44,033 nucleotides of DNA, from assembly GCA_018304605.1 (NCBI GenBank), contig JAGVVU010000033.1, forward strand, positions 1 through 44,033. The letters are read 5' to 3'. The notes under the pieces were generated by a model. The model saw only the letters and a program-made list of their open reading frames with translations, made no database searches and was not told the origin of the DNA. The position numbers and the translations under genes are program-made. Positions 4,545 to 44,033 of the stretch are shown here, piece after piece. Each line of letters opens with the position of its first letter. Position 1 is the first letter of the stretch. Origin of the DNA: Candidatus Aenigmatarchaeota archaeon. GTDB lineage: Archaea > Aenigmatarchaeota > Aenigmatarchaeia > GW2011-AR5.

Positions 4545-5252
4545 ATGTCATACGAAGAAGCAGCAATGAAGGCCTTAATAGATGGTGTAAAAGACGGCAG
4601 AAGAGATAGCCTTAGTGAGGCTGGCTATGTGCGCGATACGCTCGGCTTTAGACCTGATACAGACACACTTAGATCTATGCCTATTGAAGTTGGTCCATTG
4701 CCGCCTCCTTCCATGGGCGTTACACATATAACCCCGGAAGGCAAGGCTGCAGGTATGAGGATCAGCAGCTATATAGTAGAGCTTGGAACTCAGCTCGCCA
4801 AAAAATATAGCAAATCCAAGGATTGGGCGCTTTCATTTATTCGCAGATATGCGAGGGACGTTACGAACCATGAAGACTATCATGTTATGTCTGCCTCGCT
4901 TGCAAGGGGCTTGGAAATAACAGAACCTGTTAGAGATGCAATGGAGTCTGTTACAACAAGAGGTAGATATAAAGTCAAGAAACGTGCAGGCAAACACAAA
5001 GATGCAGAATTTGTCAAGACCACAAATCCCTACCCACGCGCATGGCATTTGGCAGAGGCCGCAGACTGGGCTCCATATCAAGGACCTTCTGGAGAAGGCT
5101 ACGCGGCTTTTTTGGGTGATGCGTCAAAAGAACCTATGCACAAACCGCTTGGCAGACTAGCTTGGCAATCAGCAAAAGCAGGTTTCAGAAAATTAGGAGA
5201 TTATCTCAAGGGATCAGGCGTGCCTAGTTATGCTATGGCAAGACTTAACTGA
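4545..5252 (+). CDS. hypothetical protein with an HExxH motif (HEDYH)
   Basis: ORF is open from TTG 4521; the first ATG is 4545. It is the only long ORF here on the gene-consistent strand. Contains a zinc-metallopeptidase-like pentapeptide only; no other family signature. Confidence 0.5.
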   Translation: MSYEEAAMKALIDGVKDGRRDSLSEAGYVRDTLGFRPDTDTLRSMPIEVGPLPPPSMGVTHITPEGKAAGMRISSYIVELGTQLAKKYSKSKDWALSFIRRYARDVTNHEDYHVMSASLARGLEITEPVRDAMESVTTRGRYKVKKRAGKHKDAEFVKTTNPYPRAWHLAEAADWAPYQGPSGEGYAAFLGDASKEPMHKPLGRLAWQSAKAGFRKLGDYLKGSGVPSYAMARLN

Positions 5253-5451
5253 CAATTATCCTGTTCTTTCCCCTGAATGTCGAGCCGAGCTTCGTTTCGT
5301 CCGGTATGTGGCCCTGCTGAAGCATCTTCATCTCGCCGGAAGAGAGATGCGTCTTGCTGTGTATCTTCAGGGCATTGAAGTTGGGAAACGTCTGCTCGCA
5401 GCGCGCGCATTGCACCGGGCGGGATTTCTTTTTCTTGAGCTTCATATTCAT
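5245..5451 (-). CDS. small C2H2 zinc-finger protein (68 aa)
   Basis: CARCEQTFPNFNALKIHSKTH fits CX2CX12HX3H exactly. Lys-rich N-terminus. TATA-like cttaaatatttt about 20 nt upstream. Divergent from rfcL. Confidence 0.6.
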   Translation of the reverse strand: MNMKLKKKKSRPVQCARCEQTFPNFNALKIHSKTHLSSGEMKMLQQGHIPDETKLGSTFRGKNRIIVS

Positions 5452-5518: not shown

Positions 5519-6534
5519 ATGCTTCTTGAGAAATACCAGCCCGTGTCGACGAAAGAGATCATAGGAAACCCGTCGCAATTGGCTGAGATCAGGAAATTCC
5601 TCGCCGGCTGGAAAAAAGGCAGGGCACTGCTTGTTCACGGTCCCACAGGCTCGGGCAAATCGACGGCAATCAAACTTGTTGCCCAGGAGTCTGGCTATGA
5701 CCTGGTGGAAGCCTGTTCCAATGAGAAGAGGACAATCAGCGATTATTATAATGCATCGCAGCAGCATGGCATCTTTTCAAGGAAGAGAATCATGCTCTTC
5801 GAGGACCTGGAGACGATGCCGATGCGCGGCTTTGCGGACCTAATAAGCAGGAGCGAGCATCCTGTCATTTGCGTCATAGGCGACGCTTACCAACTGCCTC
5901 CCGACTCAAGGAAGCTCTTCAGGATCGTGAAATTTGAAAAAGTAAATGACACAGACCTGCTAAAATTCCTCGAGAACATCTGCAAGAAGGAGTGCATCGC
6001 AGCCGAGCGCAGGCGGCTGGAGCAGCTGGTAAAGACGAGCAACGGGGACATACGCGGTCTACTGATAGACCTGGAGATGCTCAAGCGCGCTGCCTCCATC
6101 GGCTACCGGGACAATGAAGACAACATATTCAGCACGCTGAAGATAATATTCAAGACGATGAGCCTGGACAATTCCAAGATAGCCGTTGACAACTGCGAAA
6201 AGGAGCCGGAAGAGCTCATGCGCTGGCTGGAAGAGAACATAGCAGAGGAATACACGGACATCGATACCATTGCAATGGCTTTCGACTATCTCTCGAAAGC
6301 AGACATCTTCTCGTCGAGGATAATCAGGCGGCAGTCGTGGAGCCTGCAAAAATACCTCCTGTCTTTGCCAGGAAAAATGCAGTTCTGGAAAAAATATCAA
6401 AGAACCTGCACATATCAAAGAGGCGCGCGGCAGTGTACATACCCGTACTCAGGATGCTGGCGAAAAAAAACAGCGACATACTCGAAGAGCTTGGCATTGA
6501 CGAGAAAGAAGCCGCCATCCTGAATTCAAATTAG
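5519..6534 (+). CDS. rfcL: replication factor C large subunit, reading frame broken (needs a -1 shift / 1-nt restoration near 6371-6379)
   Basis: AAA+ Walker A GPTGSGKST, LFEDLE Walker B, ...SKADIFSSRIIRRQSWSLQKY. The native-looking C-terminus (LEKISKNLHISKRRAAVYIPVLRMLAKKNSDILEELGIDEKEAAIL) is in the -1 frame (ORF 6337-6534). The frame-0 tail is Cys/Tyr/Arg-rich junk. Confidence 0.8.
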
Positions 6535-10796: not shown

Positions 10797-10868
10797 TTTT
10801 CTTTCGGGAAAAGAAGGACATGCCGAAAGGCGCAAAGCGCCGGTCGCCTGGAGAAAGAAAAATATTGG
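10797..10868 (+). promoter_or_regulatory. ttcttt/aaagaa hairpin, GC hairpins, then gaaagaaaaatattgg (BRE/TATA-like)
   Basis: A variant of the palindrome-plus-promoter cassette seen at 1567, 8076, 16073 and 34751. Confidence 0.35.
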
Positions 10869-10899
10869 ATGGTGGCTCGCTGGCGCTCGCATCTTCTCT

Positions 10900-11032
10900 G
10901 GCTTTGTTGAAATGCTCAACAAAAAGCATCGACGTAGACCCATACGTGTTTCCACGTATGGGTCAGCTAGAGGTATTGTCGATACACAATACCTCTCACG
11001 TCGATGCTTTTACCTAGGATTTCAACAAAGCT
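10900..11032. mobile_element. nested-palindrome element A (MITE-like)
   Basis: 13-bp terminal inverted repeat, 14-bp inner stem and two perfect hairpins (12 and 11 bp) joined by AGCT. tcttctct lies on both flanks. Termini ggctttgttg/caacaaagc are shared with element C. Confidence 0.55.
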
Positions 11033-11065
11033 TCTTCTCTTATTTTTTTCTGCTTTAGTAAGATA

Positions 11066-11809
11066 ATGATAATCAGGGAAGTGCAAGCCAAGTCAATACT
11101 CACGAAGAGCCAGCTTACTGATTATTGCATCAATTGCTATATGGGCTGTTCATTTGGTTGCGCTTATTGCTACGCACAGCTCATAATAAGGAAATTCCAC
11201 CCCGGGCAAGCCTGGGGAGACTATCTTGATGTAAAAATCAATGCGCCGCAGCTGCTCGAGAAGGAGATCGTCCGCGCGAAGCGCGGCACGGTCATGATGT
11301 CATCAGTAACAGACCCCTACCAGCCTCTTGAGGGCAAATACCAGCTGACAAGGCAGTGCCTGGAAATCCTGCTGCGGCATGACTTCCCTGTCACCATCCT
11401 CACGCGATCTCCTCTTGTGACGAGAGACATCACGCTGCTCAAGAAATTCAAGGAATGCACTGTTGGCGTCTCGGTCACGACAAACGACGACAAGGTCAAG
11501 AATTTATTCGAGCCGCTCACGCCCCCATTCAAGATTAGAATAGAAACGTTAAAAGAACTTCACGATTCTGACCTGAGAACATATGCTTTCATAGGTCCCA
11601 TGCTCCGAATGGATCCAAATGTAGTAGGCGAATCGGTCGGCCCAAATGTTGACTATGTTTTCATAGACAAGATTAACTATCCCCAGTTATGGAGACATAT
11701 TGCGGAAAAAAATGGCATATATTTTGACAAGGAATATTTTGAAAATACTCGAGACAGTCTTATCGATTCGTTTAGGGGACAGGGCGTCAAAATCAATGCC
11801 TTGTTCTGA
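11066..11809 (+). CDS. radical SAM protein, SplB/COG1533-like (DNA-repair photolyase family)
   Basis: CSFGCAYCYA (CX3CX2C) near the N-terminus, and the S..TDPYQP.E motif typical of this family. Confidence 0.7.
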   Translation: MIIREVQAKSILTKSQLTDYCINCYMGCSFGCAYCYAQLIIRKFHPGQAWGDYLDVKINAPQLLEKEIVRAKRGTVMMSSVTDPYQPLEGKYQLTRQCLEILLRHDFPVTILTRSPLVTRDITLLKKFKECTVGVSVTTNDDKVKNLFEPLTPPFKIRIETLKELHDSDLRTYAFIGPMLRMDPNVVGESVGPNVDYVFIDKINYPQLWRHIAEKNGIYFDKEYFENTRDSLIDSFRGQGVKINALF

Positions 11810-11874
11810 TTGATATTCTGCAGGCTCAAAAAGTTTATACGCTCAGGGCGGCTTATAGCAGCTGGGTGTGACAA

Positions 11875-13002
11875 ATGTACGCGAGCAAGAAACGATTTCT
11901 AGAAAGGCTTACGCCAAAATTCCCTTCCGTCAAGCTCGGAAAGACGATTGACGGGACAAGTCCGCCTTCGATATTTGTGGGACGCGAGGGATATCCGAAA
12001 GTCTTTGTCGGGCCTCTCGTGACAGAGCAGAAGGGTGATACGTTTGAGATGGACACCCCGGAAGCGTGGCTGGGCAAGAGCAAGATGCAAATCATCGGCT
12101 TCAGGATGCAGCTTGCCCGCGGCATGAAGCAGGTCGGCGTGACGGATATTGACGACAAAATCGTCGGGAAGATGAGGGATATCGCGCTTGCCGGGAAGAC
12201 GGTTGATGCCAACGCAGAGTTTTCAAAAATTCCGAGAGGATACAGCTTCAACGAGGACCACCAGCCGTTCGGGCCTAGTGCGCCGCTGAAGAGCATGGAG
12301 ATATCCAATGTCCGCTTCGAGCATCATATGGAGAAGGCTTATAATGACAGTGACATGAATGCGCGTGCTGCGATTGTCGAACTCTATGAAAAAGGCGTTC
12401 TTGTGTCGCAGATACAGAAAGCCCTCAGTATAGGGGCTTTCGGCGTCAAGAGGCGCTTGGTGCCGACGCGCTGGAGCATAACGGCTGTTGACGACACGCT
12501 TGGAAAGAACCTTCTGGACAGCGTGAGGAGTTATCCGGTCCTTGACAGGTACCTCGTCTACGAGTTCGGCGCGCTCGAGAATTACTTTGCCATACTGCTG
12601 ACACCGACACAATGGCAGTACGAGTTCCTGGAAGTGTTCCTTGGCGTGATGGGACAGGCAGAAATGATATTTTCCGACTGGGAGCCTTACGGAGGGCGCA
12701 CCGCGTATGCCGGCATGGGCGGCTGCTACTATTCAACAAGGCTTGCAATTGCAGAAAAGCTGGACAGCATGAAAAAGCAGTCCGGTGCGATAGTGTTCAG
12801 GGAAAGCTATTCAAGCTACACGCCCCTCGGGGTCTGGCTTGTGAGAGAGAGCGCAAGAAAGGCGCTCCAGATGAAGCCGAGGGAGTTCAGCGACATGAGC
12901 TCCGCACTCAACTACATAGCGAACAAAACACAGCTGCCTTTCTGGAAGTACAGAAGAAGCAGCGTCCTGCTTAGGCAGTCGAGGCTGACCAATTTCTGCT
13001 GA
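11875..13002 (+). CDS. nreA: archaeal DNA repair protein NreA family
   Basis: SPPSIFVGREGYPKVFVGPL, RRLVPTRWSITAVDD and GGCYYSTRLAIAE are hallmark Nre motifs. The stop TGA (13000-13002) is formed at the junction with element D. Confidence 0.75.
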   Translation: MYASKKRFLERLTPKFPSVKLGKTIDGTSPPSIFVGREGYPKVFVGPLVTEQKGDTFEMDTPEAWLGKSKMQIIGFRMQLARGMKQVGVTDIDDKIVGKMRDIALAGKTVDANAEFSKIPRGYSFNEDHQPFGPSAPLKSMEISNVRFEHHMEKAYNDSDMNARAAIVELYEKGVLVSQIQKALSIGAFGVKRRLVPTRWSITAVDDTLGKNLLDSVRSYPVLDRYLVYEFGALENYFAILLTPTQWQYEFLEVFLGVMGQAEMIFSDWEPYGGRTAYAGMGGCYYSTRLAIAEKLDSMKKQSGAIVFRESYSSYTPLGVWLVRESARKALQMKPREFSDMSSALNYIANKTQLPFWKYRRSSVLLRQSRLTNFC

Positions 13003-13160
13003 TTGAATTCCATTAAAGTATGATTATCGCCGTGAGCAGCATTGAAAATGTATGACGCACTTTGTGCGTCTGTCTGTTTTACAATGCTGCTAGCTGACAT
13101 ATACGGTAGTAACCGTATATGTCTACGGCGATAATCATCATACGAATATGGAATTCAATC
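13001..13160. mobile_element. nested-palindrome element D (MITE-like) with a perfect 9-bp target-site duplication
   Basis: TIR gattgaattccat/atggaattcaatc. The direct repeat atttctgct lies immediately on both sides (12992-13000, 13161-13169). Inner 14-bp stem plus two hairpins joined by AGCT. Confidence 0.7.
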
Positions 13161-13238
13161 ATTTCTGCTAGACGTTTCTGCTTTTAAAAAGATTGTTTGC
13201 ATAATTAGGCTAAGGACCACAAACCTGGAGGTATACAA

Positions 13239-13475
13239 ATGGTAAACTTTGAAACAATAAAGAGCGAAGAGATAAAATTCGGCAACAATAATTTCCTGGA
13301 GATCGCGAGGAAAAAGGCGATATCAGAAGAAGGGGAAAACACGTTCCTTTCGCTGAGCCGCGGATTTGTCACGCCGAGCGGCGAGAAAAGATACAGAAAA
13401 TCCTTCACCGTCCCTCTTGACGATAACGTCATAGATTTCGTGGTGAAGAAGCTGAAGGAAGTCAGCAAAGAGTAA
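13239..13475 (+). CDS. hypothetical small protein (78 aa; possibly PC4/YdbC-like)
   Basis: GGAGG lies 9 nt upstream of the ATG. Beta-rich pattern FGNNNFLEIARKK...FLSLSRGF. Family assignment is weak. Confidence 0.5.
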   Translation: MVNFETIKSEEIKFGNNNFLEIARKKAISEEGENTFLSLSRGFVTPSGEKRYRKSFTVPLDDNVIDFVVKKLKEVSKE

Positions 13476-16644: not shown

Positions 16645-16745
16645 ATATTGCTACAAGGAAATAATATTATCCGGATTGTTTCCCTTGTGCACTATATGTT
16701 AACCCAGAAACATGTCGGAATTCTTTTCTGGGTTAACTATATCAT
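16645..16745. repeat. two-hairpin repeat, copy H
   Basis: Hairpin 1 is 16649-16691 (12 bp with bulges). Hairpin 2 is gttaacccagaa/ttctgggttaac, 16698-16737 (12 bp). Colinear with 25845-25943. Confidence 0.65.
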
Positions 16746-23021: not shown

Positions 23022-23070
23022 AATAACTCCTGAATATAGTTTCGTCTTTCCAGTATAAATAATATGTCTG

Positions 23071-23127
23071 GCTCTGTAGAATACACAATAAGGCTCCTGC
23101 GACTTTTCTCATAGGTTTTCTACAGAG
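23071..23127. repeat. internally deleted copy (B') of nested-palindrome element B
   Basis: gctctgtagaa ... ttttctcataggttttctacagag are the same termini and 3' spacer as B (25988-26117). The inner hairpins are missing. Confidence 0.6.
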
Positions 23128-23151
23128 TTATACGTTTCTATACTTTCAGGT

Positions 23152-25844: not shown

Positions 25845-25943
25845 TATAGTTCTCCAAGGAAACATTCTGGATATTATTTCCTTGGGAACTATATGTGAAC
25901 CCAGAATTCATGTCCGAAATCTTTTCTGGGTTCACTATAACAA
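25845..25943. repeat. two-hairpin repeat, copy G
   Basis: Hairpin 1 is 25845-25893 (17 bp, one bulge). Hairpin 2 is gtgaacccagaa/ttctgggttcac, 25895-25935. Confidence 0.65.
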
Positions 25944-25987
25944 TACGCAAACCAAGTTGTGCCGCATATTTTTAGCCTGGTTTACTA

Positions 25988-26117
25988 GCTCTGTAGAAAT
26001 GCTCAAGGAAAATCAGCAGGAACCCTATTGTGGACACACAATAGGGTTAGTAACTAGAGGGTGTTGTGCTTTCACAACACCCTCCCTGCTGATTTTCTCA
26101 TAGGTTTTCTACAGAGC
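25988..26117. mobile_element. nested-palindrome element B
   Basis: Outer 12 bp, inner 13 bp and two 12-bp hairpins (loops gaca, cttt), all perfect. Same module order as A and D. Confidence 0.55.
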
Positions 26118-26230
26118 CAGCCGGTTTGCTGTATTGATTTTGTGATAAAGAAAGAATCAGAAAAACCGGCAAACGCCGAGCCGGTTATCTTACCTAAAGA
26201 ATATATATCGAACAGGGTCAATAATAAATC

Positions 26231-30342: not shown

Positions 30343-30441
30343 GGCTTTGTTGCAAAAGTGATGGACATCTGTCGATGTCCATCGATGCATTAGGCTATCG
30401 ATGCTAAACGCATATCGATAGCCGACTTTTGCAACAAAGCC
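30343..30441. mobile_element. nested-palindrome element C
   Basis: 17-bp outer stem ggctttgttgcaaaagt/acttttgcaacaaagcc encloses two 10-bp hairpins. ccaaga/caaga direct repeat at both junctions. Same termini as element A. Confidence 0.5.
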
Positions 30442-33756: not shown

Positions 33757-33925
33757 CAAGGTGAAGTTCTTGACTTCACCTGTACAGGAAGAACCTTAGT
33801 TCTTCCTCGTATTATCCTAGAATGCATTGAATACTGCGGTCTAAAGACCGCAGATGAAACTCAATGCATTCTGGATGCCATGTTCCCAGATACCCATGGC
33901 TTTAGCCATGGGTTATAAGGAACAT
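33757..33925. repeat. cluster of four perfect or nested hairpins, including the ATACTGCGGNCTAAAGNCCGCAGAT module
   Basis: aggtgaagt/acttcacct, aggaagaac/gttcttcct, agaatgcattga/tcaatgcattct enclosing ctgcggtc-taaa-gaccgcag, and atgttcc/ggaacat enclosing acccatggc-ttta-gccatgggt. Confidence 0.6.
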
Positions 33926-33983
33926 ATCATCAACCTTACTTGAGTGAGAAGTTTTAAAAAGGTTGAATCCGGCCGCTAATAAT

Positions 33984-43265: not shown

Positions 43266-43364
43266 TTTATTGCAATGAATGCAGCTAGTTTAATACTACG
43301 ACCTTCAGGTCGTTCATATTAAACTGCATTCTTGCAAAAATACTGCGGGCTAAAGCCCGCAGAT
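43266..43364 (+). repeat. 99-bp structured direct repeat F1
   Basis: Identical to 43935-44033 except for the loop of the terminal hairpin (taaa versus ttta). Long hairpin 43270-43337 plus ctgcgggc-taaa-gcccgcag. Confidence 0.85.
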
Positions 43365-43934: not shown

Positions 43935-44033
43935 TTTATTGCAATGAATGCAGCTAGTTTAATACTACGACCTTCAGGTCGTTCATATTAAACTGCATTC
44001 TTGCAAAAATACTGCGGGCTTTAGCCCGCAGAT
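43935..44033 (+). repeat. 99-bp structured direct repeat F2 (runs to the window end)
   Basis: See F1. The window or contig ends exactly at the last repeat base. Confidence 0.85.

Follow-up and report, generated by a model that had tools for sequence, protein, structure and literature searches.

Element A, a perfectly paired palindrome lying between a 78-aa membrane-protein gene and a radical-SAM gene, is very probably a MITE, that is, a non-autonomous transposon without coding capacity; its two ends reproduce those of a ~1-kb insertion sequence (IS) of the IS5 family, from which its core does not derive. It is shorter than ~500 bp and lacks a transposase ORF (the overlapping ORFs are spurious read-throughs from neighbouring frames), and it has terminal inverted repeats (TIRs), a target-site duplication (TSD) that is fixed in length and variable in sequence, dispersed copies, and IS-homologous termini; homology of the termini to an autonomous IS is a stated criterion for MITEs (PMC7002104). 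The initial annotation saw in A an undescribed kind of archaeal repeat, a view that we do not uphold, as A conforms to what defines a MITE and carries the ends of an IS5-family IS. What had been a striking orphan structure is thereby explained: A and its relatives B, C, D and E in the 44-kb window (the whole stretch of DNA that was analysed) would be copies of transposons, not regulatory RNAs. The kind of MITE is ordinary, and the unusual part is a core that stays perfectly paired while its sequence turns over. The family represents a clean natural experiment on whether internal DNA structure matters for MITE mobilisation or whether palindromes correct themselves.

Architecture of element A and its partner insertion sequence

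Element A consists of an outer stem, an inner stem and two hairpins (Table 1). Inverted-repeat search and folding bear out both the helix positions given in the initial annotation and the absence of a mismatch from every helix; the structure stands as annotated, and two of its measures shift slightly, the length from 131 to 133 nt once the terminal bases are counted and the distance to ATG 11066 of the downstream radical-SAM gene from 34 to 33 nt. The folding energy of A is -75.6 kcal/mol, compared with -26.2 ± 3.6 kcal/mol in dinucleotide shuffles (z = -13.6; 0/200 shuffles as good), and the complementary strand folds equally well (z = -15.9). No G-U pair is present in any helix, and the loci of A, B, C and D are extreme outliers in a sliding-window energy scan of the window. 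The outer stem is a pair of IS-type TIRs, perfect over 13–14 bp (GGCTTTGTTGAAAT / ATTTCAACAAAGC), and the internal loop (GCTCAACA opposite ACCTAGG) corresponds to sub-terminal sequence, in which the left and right ends of the IS differ. The inner stem and the two hairpins form a separate self-complementary core that is not derived from the IS.

Table 1. Features of element A and of its relatives in the window
Feature	Position	Strand	Size or sequence	Remarks
Left TSD copy	10892..10899	.	8 bp, TCTTCTCT	8-bp length typical of the family
Element A, probable complete MITE	10900..11032	+	133 nt	IS left-end sequence on + strand; covariance model 154 bits
Left TIR and sub-terminal sequence	10900..10919	+	GGCTTTGTTGAAATGCTCAA	20/20 identical to autonomous IS5-family left end (L085, L257, L258, L261)
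Outer stem	10901-10913/11019-11031		13 bp; 14 if G10900-T11032 is added	Inverted-repeat search
Palindromic three-way-junction core (inner stem, both hairpins, AGCT)	10922..11011	.		No IS similarity
Inner stem	10922-10935/10998-11011		14 bp	Inverted-repeat search
First hairpin	10937-10948/10953-10964		12 bp, loop TTTC	Inverted-repeat search
Linker	10965-10968		AGCT	Between the hairpins
Second hairpin	10969-10979/10986-10996		11 bp	Inverted-repeat search
Right end	11015..11032	+	TAGGATTTCAACAAAGCT	Matches IS right end TAGGGTTTCAACAAAGCC (17 nt, 94%)
Right TSD copy	11033..11040	.	8 bp, TCTTCTCT	
TSD of element D	12992-13000 and 13161-13169		9 bp, ATTTCTGCT	
Element D, MITE in a different shell	13001..13160	-	TIR GATTGAATTCCAT	74-87 bits on minus strand
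Element E, B-like copy with internal deletion	23070..23129	+		Both termini retained; 21 bits, E about 0.004
Element B, A-type MITE, B-like subclass	25987..26118	+	Linker AGTAACT	Covariance model 88 bits
Element C, relative with two hairpins and without inner stem	30343..30441	+	99 nt	30 bits, E about 2e-5

The partner IS was recognised in Methanomicrobiales MAG loci in which a 19-nt terminus shared with A is followed by an ORF instead of the core. An intact 998-bp IS flanked by the TSD TATTTATC (L085:1872-2869) serves as the reference in place of the L070 copy, which is interrupted. Its left end (GGCTTTGTTGAAATGCTCAA) is identical to that of A at 20/20 nt and its right end (TAGGGTTTCAACAAAGCC) at 16/17, and BLAST of A against this IS yields matches at A positions 1-20 and 116-132 only, the 95-nt interior being unrelated. 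The ORF codes for 303 aa and scores 205.5 bits against the NCBIfam model of IS5-family transposases (NF033579, cutoff 140); the product also contains Pfam domains DDE_Tnp_1 (PF01609, 70.6 bits) and DUF772. Autonomous copies at three other loci (L257, L258 and L261) carry the same ends, with a clean 8-bp TSD in L257 and L261 and an almost matching one in L258. Members of the transposase clade that are less closely related (L251 and L253) have GGCYYTGTTGAMA ends and 8-bp TSDs, bringing to five the autonomous copies across the clade with a duplication of this length (L085, L257, L261, L251 and L253). The closest named relative of the transposase is that of the IS5-like ISMepa1 of Methanosphaerula palustris (49% identity). 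Elements of the ISH1 subgroup of IS5 make 8-bp duplications, and the partner IS may belong to an ISH1-like subgroup.

In the mechanism that we propose, an IS5-clade DDE transposase supplied in trans would bind the ~20-bp ends of A, excise or copy the element, and insert it with a staggered cut of 8 bp into AT-rich DNA, mostly between genes.

Copies, insertion sites and alternative identities

Elements A and B have GAAATGCTCAA in common on the left and TAGGnTTTC on the right. When 185,579 species genomes were scanned for GCTNTGTNGAAATGCTCAA, chance matches in bacterial genes came up together with clusters of matches in a few archaeal MAGs; the latter, once extracted, are complete elements of 131-133 nt with the same fold as A. 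At least 42 copies of the ~133-nt element, representing 25 variants, are present in related DPANN (Aenigmatarchaeota-type) MAGs and metagenomes, thus providing the additional copies for which the initial annotation had proposed a search; all 25 distinct ~130-nt variants (42 copies) take the A-type fold. The MAG ERP125453_co1_151 contains at least 13 identical complete 133-nt copies, each with a different 8-bp flanking repeat (for example TGTTTTTT, AAATGCCC and AACAAAAC), and further variants are found in co1_24 and in MAGs labelled Aenigmatarchaeota. Among the 52 elements with A termini from the genome and metagenome scans, 39 have a perfect 8-bp TSD and 3 more have one that is off by a single base; 38 different sequences, with an A+T content of 72%, make up the 39 perfect TSDs. 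Duplications of 8 bp that differ from copy to copy are the signature of transposition with an 8-bp staggered cut, and the repeat flanking A, earlier noted as a possible TSD, is real. A covariance model run on the related loci identifies about 50 elements, and a search of viral contigs revealed no true copy of the MITE and no relative of the transposase. The Methanoregulaceae MAGs (L009, L017, L018, L025, L045, L057, L072 and L123) harbor another MITE of ~208 nt, which has the termini of A and 8-bp TSDs around a G-rich interior unrelated to that of A. The same ends thus enclose a different interior, and the core therefore follows the host lineage, not the transposase ends.

The window holds three copies of the A type (A, B and E). 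A covariance model seeded with three A-type copies recovers exactly A, B, D, C and E there, with everything else at E>0.1; A, B, C and D do constitute one structurally related set, as initially annotated. The module order of A is also seen in B and D as then described, and C folds in a like manner; the accompanying statement that the inner stems share no sequence needs a small correction, as A and B have scattered sequence in common and the core of D is homologous to that of A in inverted orientation. Element B lies in a divergent spacer, and its TSD (GGTTTACT / GGTTTGCT) becomes visible only if the right end is assumed to contain a 4-nt duplication (AGCC). Element C has a perfect 17-bp TIR (GGCTTTGTTGCAAAAGT). 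The spacer upstream of a nucleotidyltransferase gene contains C here (30343-30441) and a copy of variant v0 in another species (L103:5887-6019), at different positions in the two, which suggests a preferred landing zone.

Element D sits precisely where the Nre gene has its stop codon. It contributes a new stop, TGA (13000-13002), the old stop TAG (13170-13172) is now behind the second TSD copy, and the C-terminus of the protein is unchanged. Removal of the element and one TSD copy reconstructs ...CCAATTTCTGCTAGACG..., and two relatives with an Nre protein of 82% identity (L263 and L262), in which the gene ends TTC TGC TAG or TTC TGT TGA, align unbroken across this junction and represent the empty site; D therefore inserted at the Nre stop codon. 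For A, the empty allele would join ...GCTCGCATCTTCTCT to TATTTTTTTCTGC..., a reconstructed site without a match in an exact-match scan of the metagenome collection. The closest relative, L262, has the same gene pair without the element, in a diverged spacer that retains only a 15-nt match (TCTTATTTTTTTCTG) across the A junction. A syntenic locus of co1_151 (L083) was also considered as the empty site and rejected, as it is rearranged and its radical-SAM gene is not between the same neighbours. Since the exact search found no empty allele and the L262 spacer has diverged, we infer the insertion of A from its TSD and from the behaviour of the family. In the relatives L262 and L263, a HAD-hydrolase gene separates the radical-SAM gene from Nre, and Nre is followed by a gene for 104 aa on the reverse strand (L262:3754-4440 and 5710-6024; L263:2064-2378). 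Both genes are absent from the window, so the neighbourhood is in flux around the MITE sites.

Three other identities for A were weighed. It could be a cis-acting structured RNA of the radical-SAM gene, whether a 5'-UTR regulator, a riboswitch-like element or a small-RNA gene, in line with the 5'-UTR placement in the initial annotation and with its very stable fold, strong covariation and position 33 nt upstream of the ATG; transcripts of MITEs are moreover known as sRNAs or regulators in some bacteria (review PMC10969869). Copies are, however, dispersed over dozens of unrelated loci, each with its own TSD, which makes a gene-specific 5'-UTR role unlikely as the reason for A, and sister copies are located at the end of a coding sequence, on its stop codon (D), between divergent genes (B) and within the termini of other MITEs. 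In addition, the core can point either way within the shell, hardly any G-U pairs are present, the two strands fold equally well, and L262 has the same gene pair without A. Rfam yields no match at gathering thresholds over the whole window and none even at E<=1 over 10850-13250, and a tRNA/tmRNA scan was likewise empty. We therefore consider an RNA of this kind very unlikely. A T7 run directly to the right of A (TCTTATTTTTTTCTG) is conserved in L262 shortly after the stop codon of the upstream gene. Oligo-T terminators are a feature of archaeal transcription, and the run could terminate the upstream gene; a TATA-like box that gives rise to a near-leaderless radical-SAM mRNA is just as conceivable. 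In these cases A would belong to a 3' UTR or to no transcript at all, instead of the 5' UTR that the initial annotation considered probable.

Hairpins that come in pairs, are constant in size and keep structure over sequence resemble REP doublets and might suggest a REP/REPIN-like or IS200/IS605-type element (PATE) moved as single-stranded hairpins by an HUH (Y1) transposase. We know of no HUH-mobilised elements with fixed-length target duplications or long terminal inverted repeats, yet A has an 8-bp TSD, TIRs and a DDE partner IS, and this origin is extremely improbable. The remaining candidate, a MITE of the IS6/IS26 family, was a first guess from TIR resemblance and the 8-bp TSD: the termini of A (GGCTTTGTTGAAAT) and C (GGCTTTGTTGCAAAAGT) are similar to the consensus of IS6 (GGyTCTGTTGCAAA), a family that likewise duplicates 8 bp of target. 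The agreement extends only to the TIRs and the TSD length, however, as full-length elements with the exact ends of A encode a DDE_Tnp_1/DUF772 transposase that scores 205 bits with the NCBIfam IS5 model, and the partner transposase has no IS6-type match (DDE_Tnp_IS240). Because the partner transposase is classed as IS5, the guess was rejected for A, for which an IS6 affiliation is highly improbable; only C may still have one. An IS5-derived MITE is thus the identity that we retain, and at its own locus A is probably a neutral passenger between the two genes.

The covarying core

Differences among the 25 variants, counted along a minimum spanning tree, comprise 118 compensated two-sided helix changes; single wobble changes number 16, and another 48 changes create or destroy a pair. 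Changes are thus overwhelmingly compensatory, not random, the outcome that the initial annotation had named as refuting its reading. A MAFFT alignment of the variants misaligned the second hairpin, so a covariance-model alignment of 101 matches from related loci was used. In this alignment 97% of cells are paired, compared with 68% after shuffling and 35-46% when partners are slid by 1-3 columns, and the covariation score is 0.72, compared with 0.20 and 0.06-0.15, respectively; two-sided changes are present in 48 of 50 pairs, and G-U pairs are almost absent. These counts are somewhat inflated, because every element enters the alignment with both of its strands and the alignment is fitted to the model, two biases of which the spanning-tree count is free. 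Dimensions are kept as well: hairpin arms are 12 bp long in 42/50 and loops 4 nt long in 37/50.

The core also varies in its orientation and its shell. Two orientation classes, stem-A-P-AGCT-Q-C-stem and stem-G-Q-AGCT-P-T-stem, are exact reverse complements of each other, and B-like elements (AGTAACTA versus TAGTTACT) and the D family show this flip as well, so that the core is inverted relative to its shell in three lineages. The architecture recurs, partly with homologous sequence, in at least four shells that have different termini and TSD lengths. In addition to the A-type shell these are the D-family shell (TIR GATTGAATTCCAT, mostly 9-bp TSD), a third shell (L086:4737 and L080:3) and a fourth (L222:1700). 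One A-type shell and one D-type shell contain an extended Q hairpin that is almost the same in the two. Several elements are also nested at their ends. At L040:6617-6884, the 9-bp TSD (GTGTAGCTC) of a D-type element covers flank and the first 5 nt of an A-type element; at L086:1980-2277, the 8-bp TSD (AACTGGAT) of an A-type element covers flank and the first 3 nt of a D-type element; and at L080:1-150 a third-shell element adjoins an A-type end. Shuffling of cores and shells may arise from such insertion of MITEs into the termini of other MITEs.

Pairing is imperfect in some single-copy variants, in which stems contain mismatches (L040:6752, L081 and L182). Two multi-copy subfamilies of the MAG co1_24, v2 and v9 (L033, L106 and L108 versus L066, L080 and L086), differ solely by six changes within 12 nt at one hairpin tip (ATTGTCTTTTGACAAT versus ATCATCTCTCGATGAT); no donor sequence for the v2 tip was found among the loci examined.

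Why the core stays paired is a separate matter from the identity of A. It is plausible that what is constrained is the DNA, or both strands to the same degree, and that this helps the element itself to propagate or persist; in the reading that we prefer, a fold-back or cruciform would bring the two ends together for a scarce trans-acting transposase, and templated correction of hairpin arms may help to keep the core perfect. No requirement for internal structure is known for DDE transposases of the IS5 family, and a role of the core in transposition is what we infer, not what we observed. The helices could instead be an unselected mutational by-product, with intrastrand template switching or hairpin-templated repair (quasipalindrome correction) rewriting the arms and flipping the segment, a possibility to be taken seriously if not the probable one. 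The near absence of G-U/G-T pairs and the equal folding of both strands fit a process acting on duplex complementarity, not on one RNA strand; inversion of the core between its 14-bp inverted arms, which has occurred at least three times, is the expected product of template switching; and the cluster of six changes that separates v2 from v9 resembles one multi-base event. The helices of B are perfect even though its TSD has decayed, and in-situ correction accounts for this at least as well as selection at transposition does. Mutation alone does not explain, however, why arm and loop lengths are constant or why the three-helix architecture recurs in at least four shells, and the mismatched single-copy variants indicate that correction is not automatic. 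The absence of G-U pairs, the equal strand folds, the v2/v9 cluster and the helices of B thus lean towards a mutational mechanism, whereas selection is favored by the constancy of helix and loop lengths and by the presence of the architecture in four shells. The core might even be a functional structured-DNA (or RNA) module of Aenigmatarchaeota-type genomes that has been captured by at least four MITE shells with different transposase ends (8-bp and 9-bp TSDs), holds its helix and loop lengths constant through compensatory evolution, can be flipped, and is needed for mobilisation or retention, for instance as a cruciform or fold-back replacing a resident transposase-binding architecture. We regard this fuller proposal as rather unlikely. 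In a bolder extension of it, DPANN symbionts without a transposase of their own would have their elements mobilised by the transposase of methanogen hosts, whose IS ends match exactly.

Host, related elements and other repeats

The best named homologs of the arginyl-tRNA synthetase encoded in the window are from Candidatus Aenigmatarchaeota (68% and 59%), followed by other DPANN lineages, and several of the element-carrying MAGs are labelled Aenigmatarchaeota. Neither the window nor the DPANN-like loci examined contain a relative of the cognate transposase, which is likely due to MAG incompleteness around repeats. Close transposases (82-100% identical to the partner) are all found among PAS/GAF sensor kinases, KaiB and PKD/PEGA proteins, neighbourhoods that are typical of Methanomicrobiales. 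Autonomous IS copies were thus encountered only on Methanomicrobiales-type contigs, whereas the 133-nt MITE was encountered in Aenigmatarchaeota-type genomes. The exact identity of the DPANN MITE ends with those of an IS seen only in Methanomicrobiales could at most be a lead for host-symbiont gene flow. Among the methanogen IS5-family ISs, represented by ISMepa1, the 998-bp element, which encodes a DDE_Tnp_1 transposase and is flanked by an 8-bp TSD, has the same ends as A, but A lacks the transposase and has only ~37 nt in common with the IS.

Correia/NEMIS elements of Neisseria, ERIC/IRU, RUP/BOX and the Coxiella QMITE resemble A in being long stem-loop folds of 100-200 nt near genes, and they can be co-transcribed and affect mRNA fate. 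These structured bacterial MITEs, however, fold mainly through long, usually imperfect TIRs and have other TSDs (that of Correia is TA), whereas A has three additional perfect internal helices whose sequence turns over and which are found flipped in some copies. Integron attC sites and REP/REPIN elements also vary in sequence while keeping a folded-DNA architecture, a likeness to the core of A in logic only, not in membership; unlike them, A has no integrase, cassette context or RAYT, and has a TSD and DDE-type termini. Prokaryotic MITEs, including the archaeal SM1-4 of Sulfolobus, the MITEHsal series of Halobacterium and those of Haloquadratum, share more with A: they are small and non-coding, with IS-homologous TIRs, a fixed-length TSD, multiple copies, AT-rich intergenic targets and a stable predicted stem-loop. 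They differ in that the interior of A is no IS deletion remnant but a covarying, invertible three-way-junction palindrome common to several shells. DPANN genomes have previously been reported to be densely populated with MITEs, a stable stem-loop fold counts as a typical trait of such elements, and bulk catalogues cover DPANN genomes (PMC11602168, PMC10969869). In a limited literature search, in which the large MITE catalogue was compared by description only, we found no description of the A family or of a covarying, invertible, shell-swapping core. One further article (PMC8784108) was set aside, as its "insertion sequences" are inserts in rRNA.

Several other repeats and differences are present in the window. 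Four consecutive strong hairpins (about -76 kcal/mol per 150 nt) occupy the spacer between two minus-strand genes at 33760-33935 and are outside the A family (covariance model E>0.7); spacers of the relative L262 are also hairpin-rich. A ~70-nt sequence at 16675-16744 is repeated with 85% identity at 25873-25942 and contains a perfect 13-bp hairpin (GTTAACCCAGAAA / TTTCTGGGTTAAC); it is another small repeat family in the same genome. Two segments 669 nt apart (43269-43338 and 43938-44007) have identical weak covariance-model scores and are probably a direct repeat. Relative to a 99.9% identical contig (L001), the window is missing 62 nt at ~3739 (L001:2539-2600), at the start of the rRNA dimethylase gene region, and 70 nt at ~6357 (5223-5292); the pieces found only in L001 are ordinary, non-palindromic sequence unrelated to the MITE elements.
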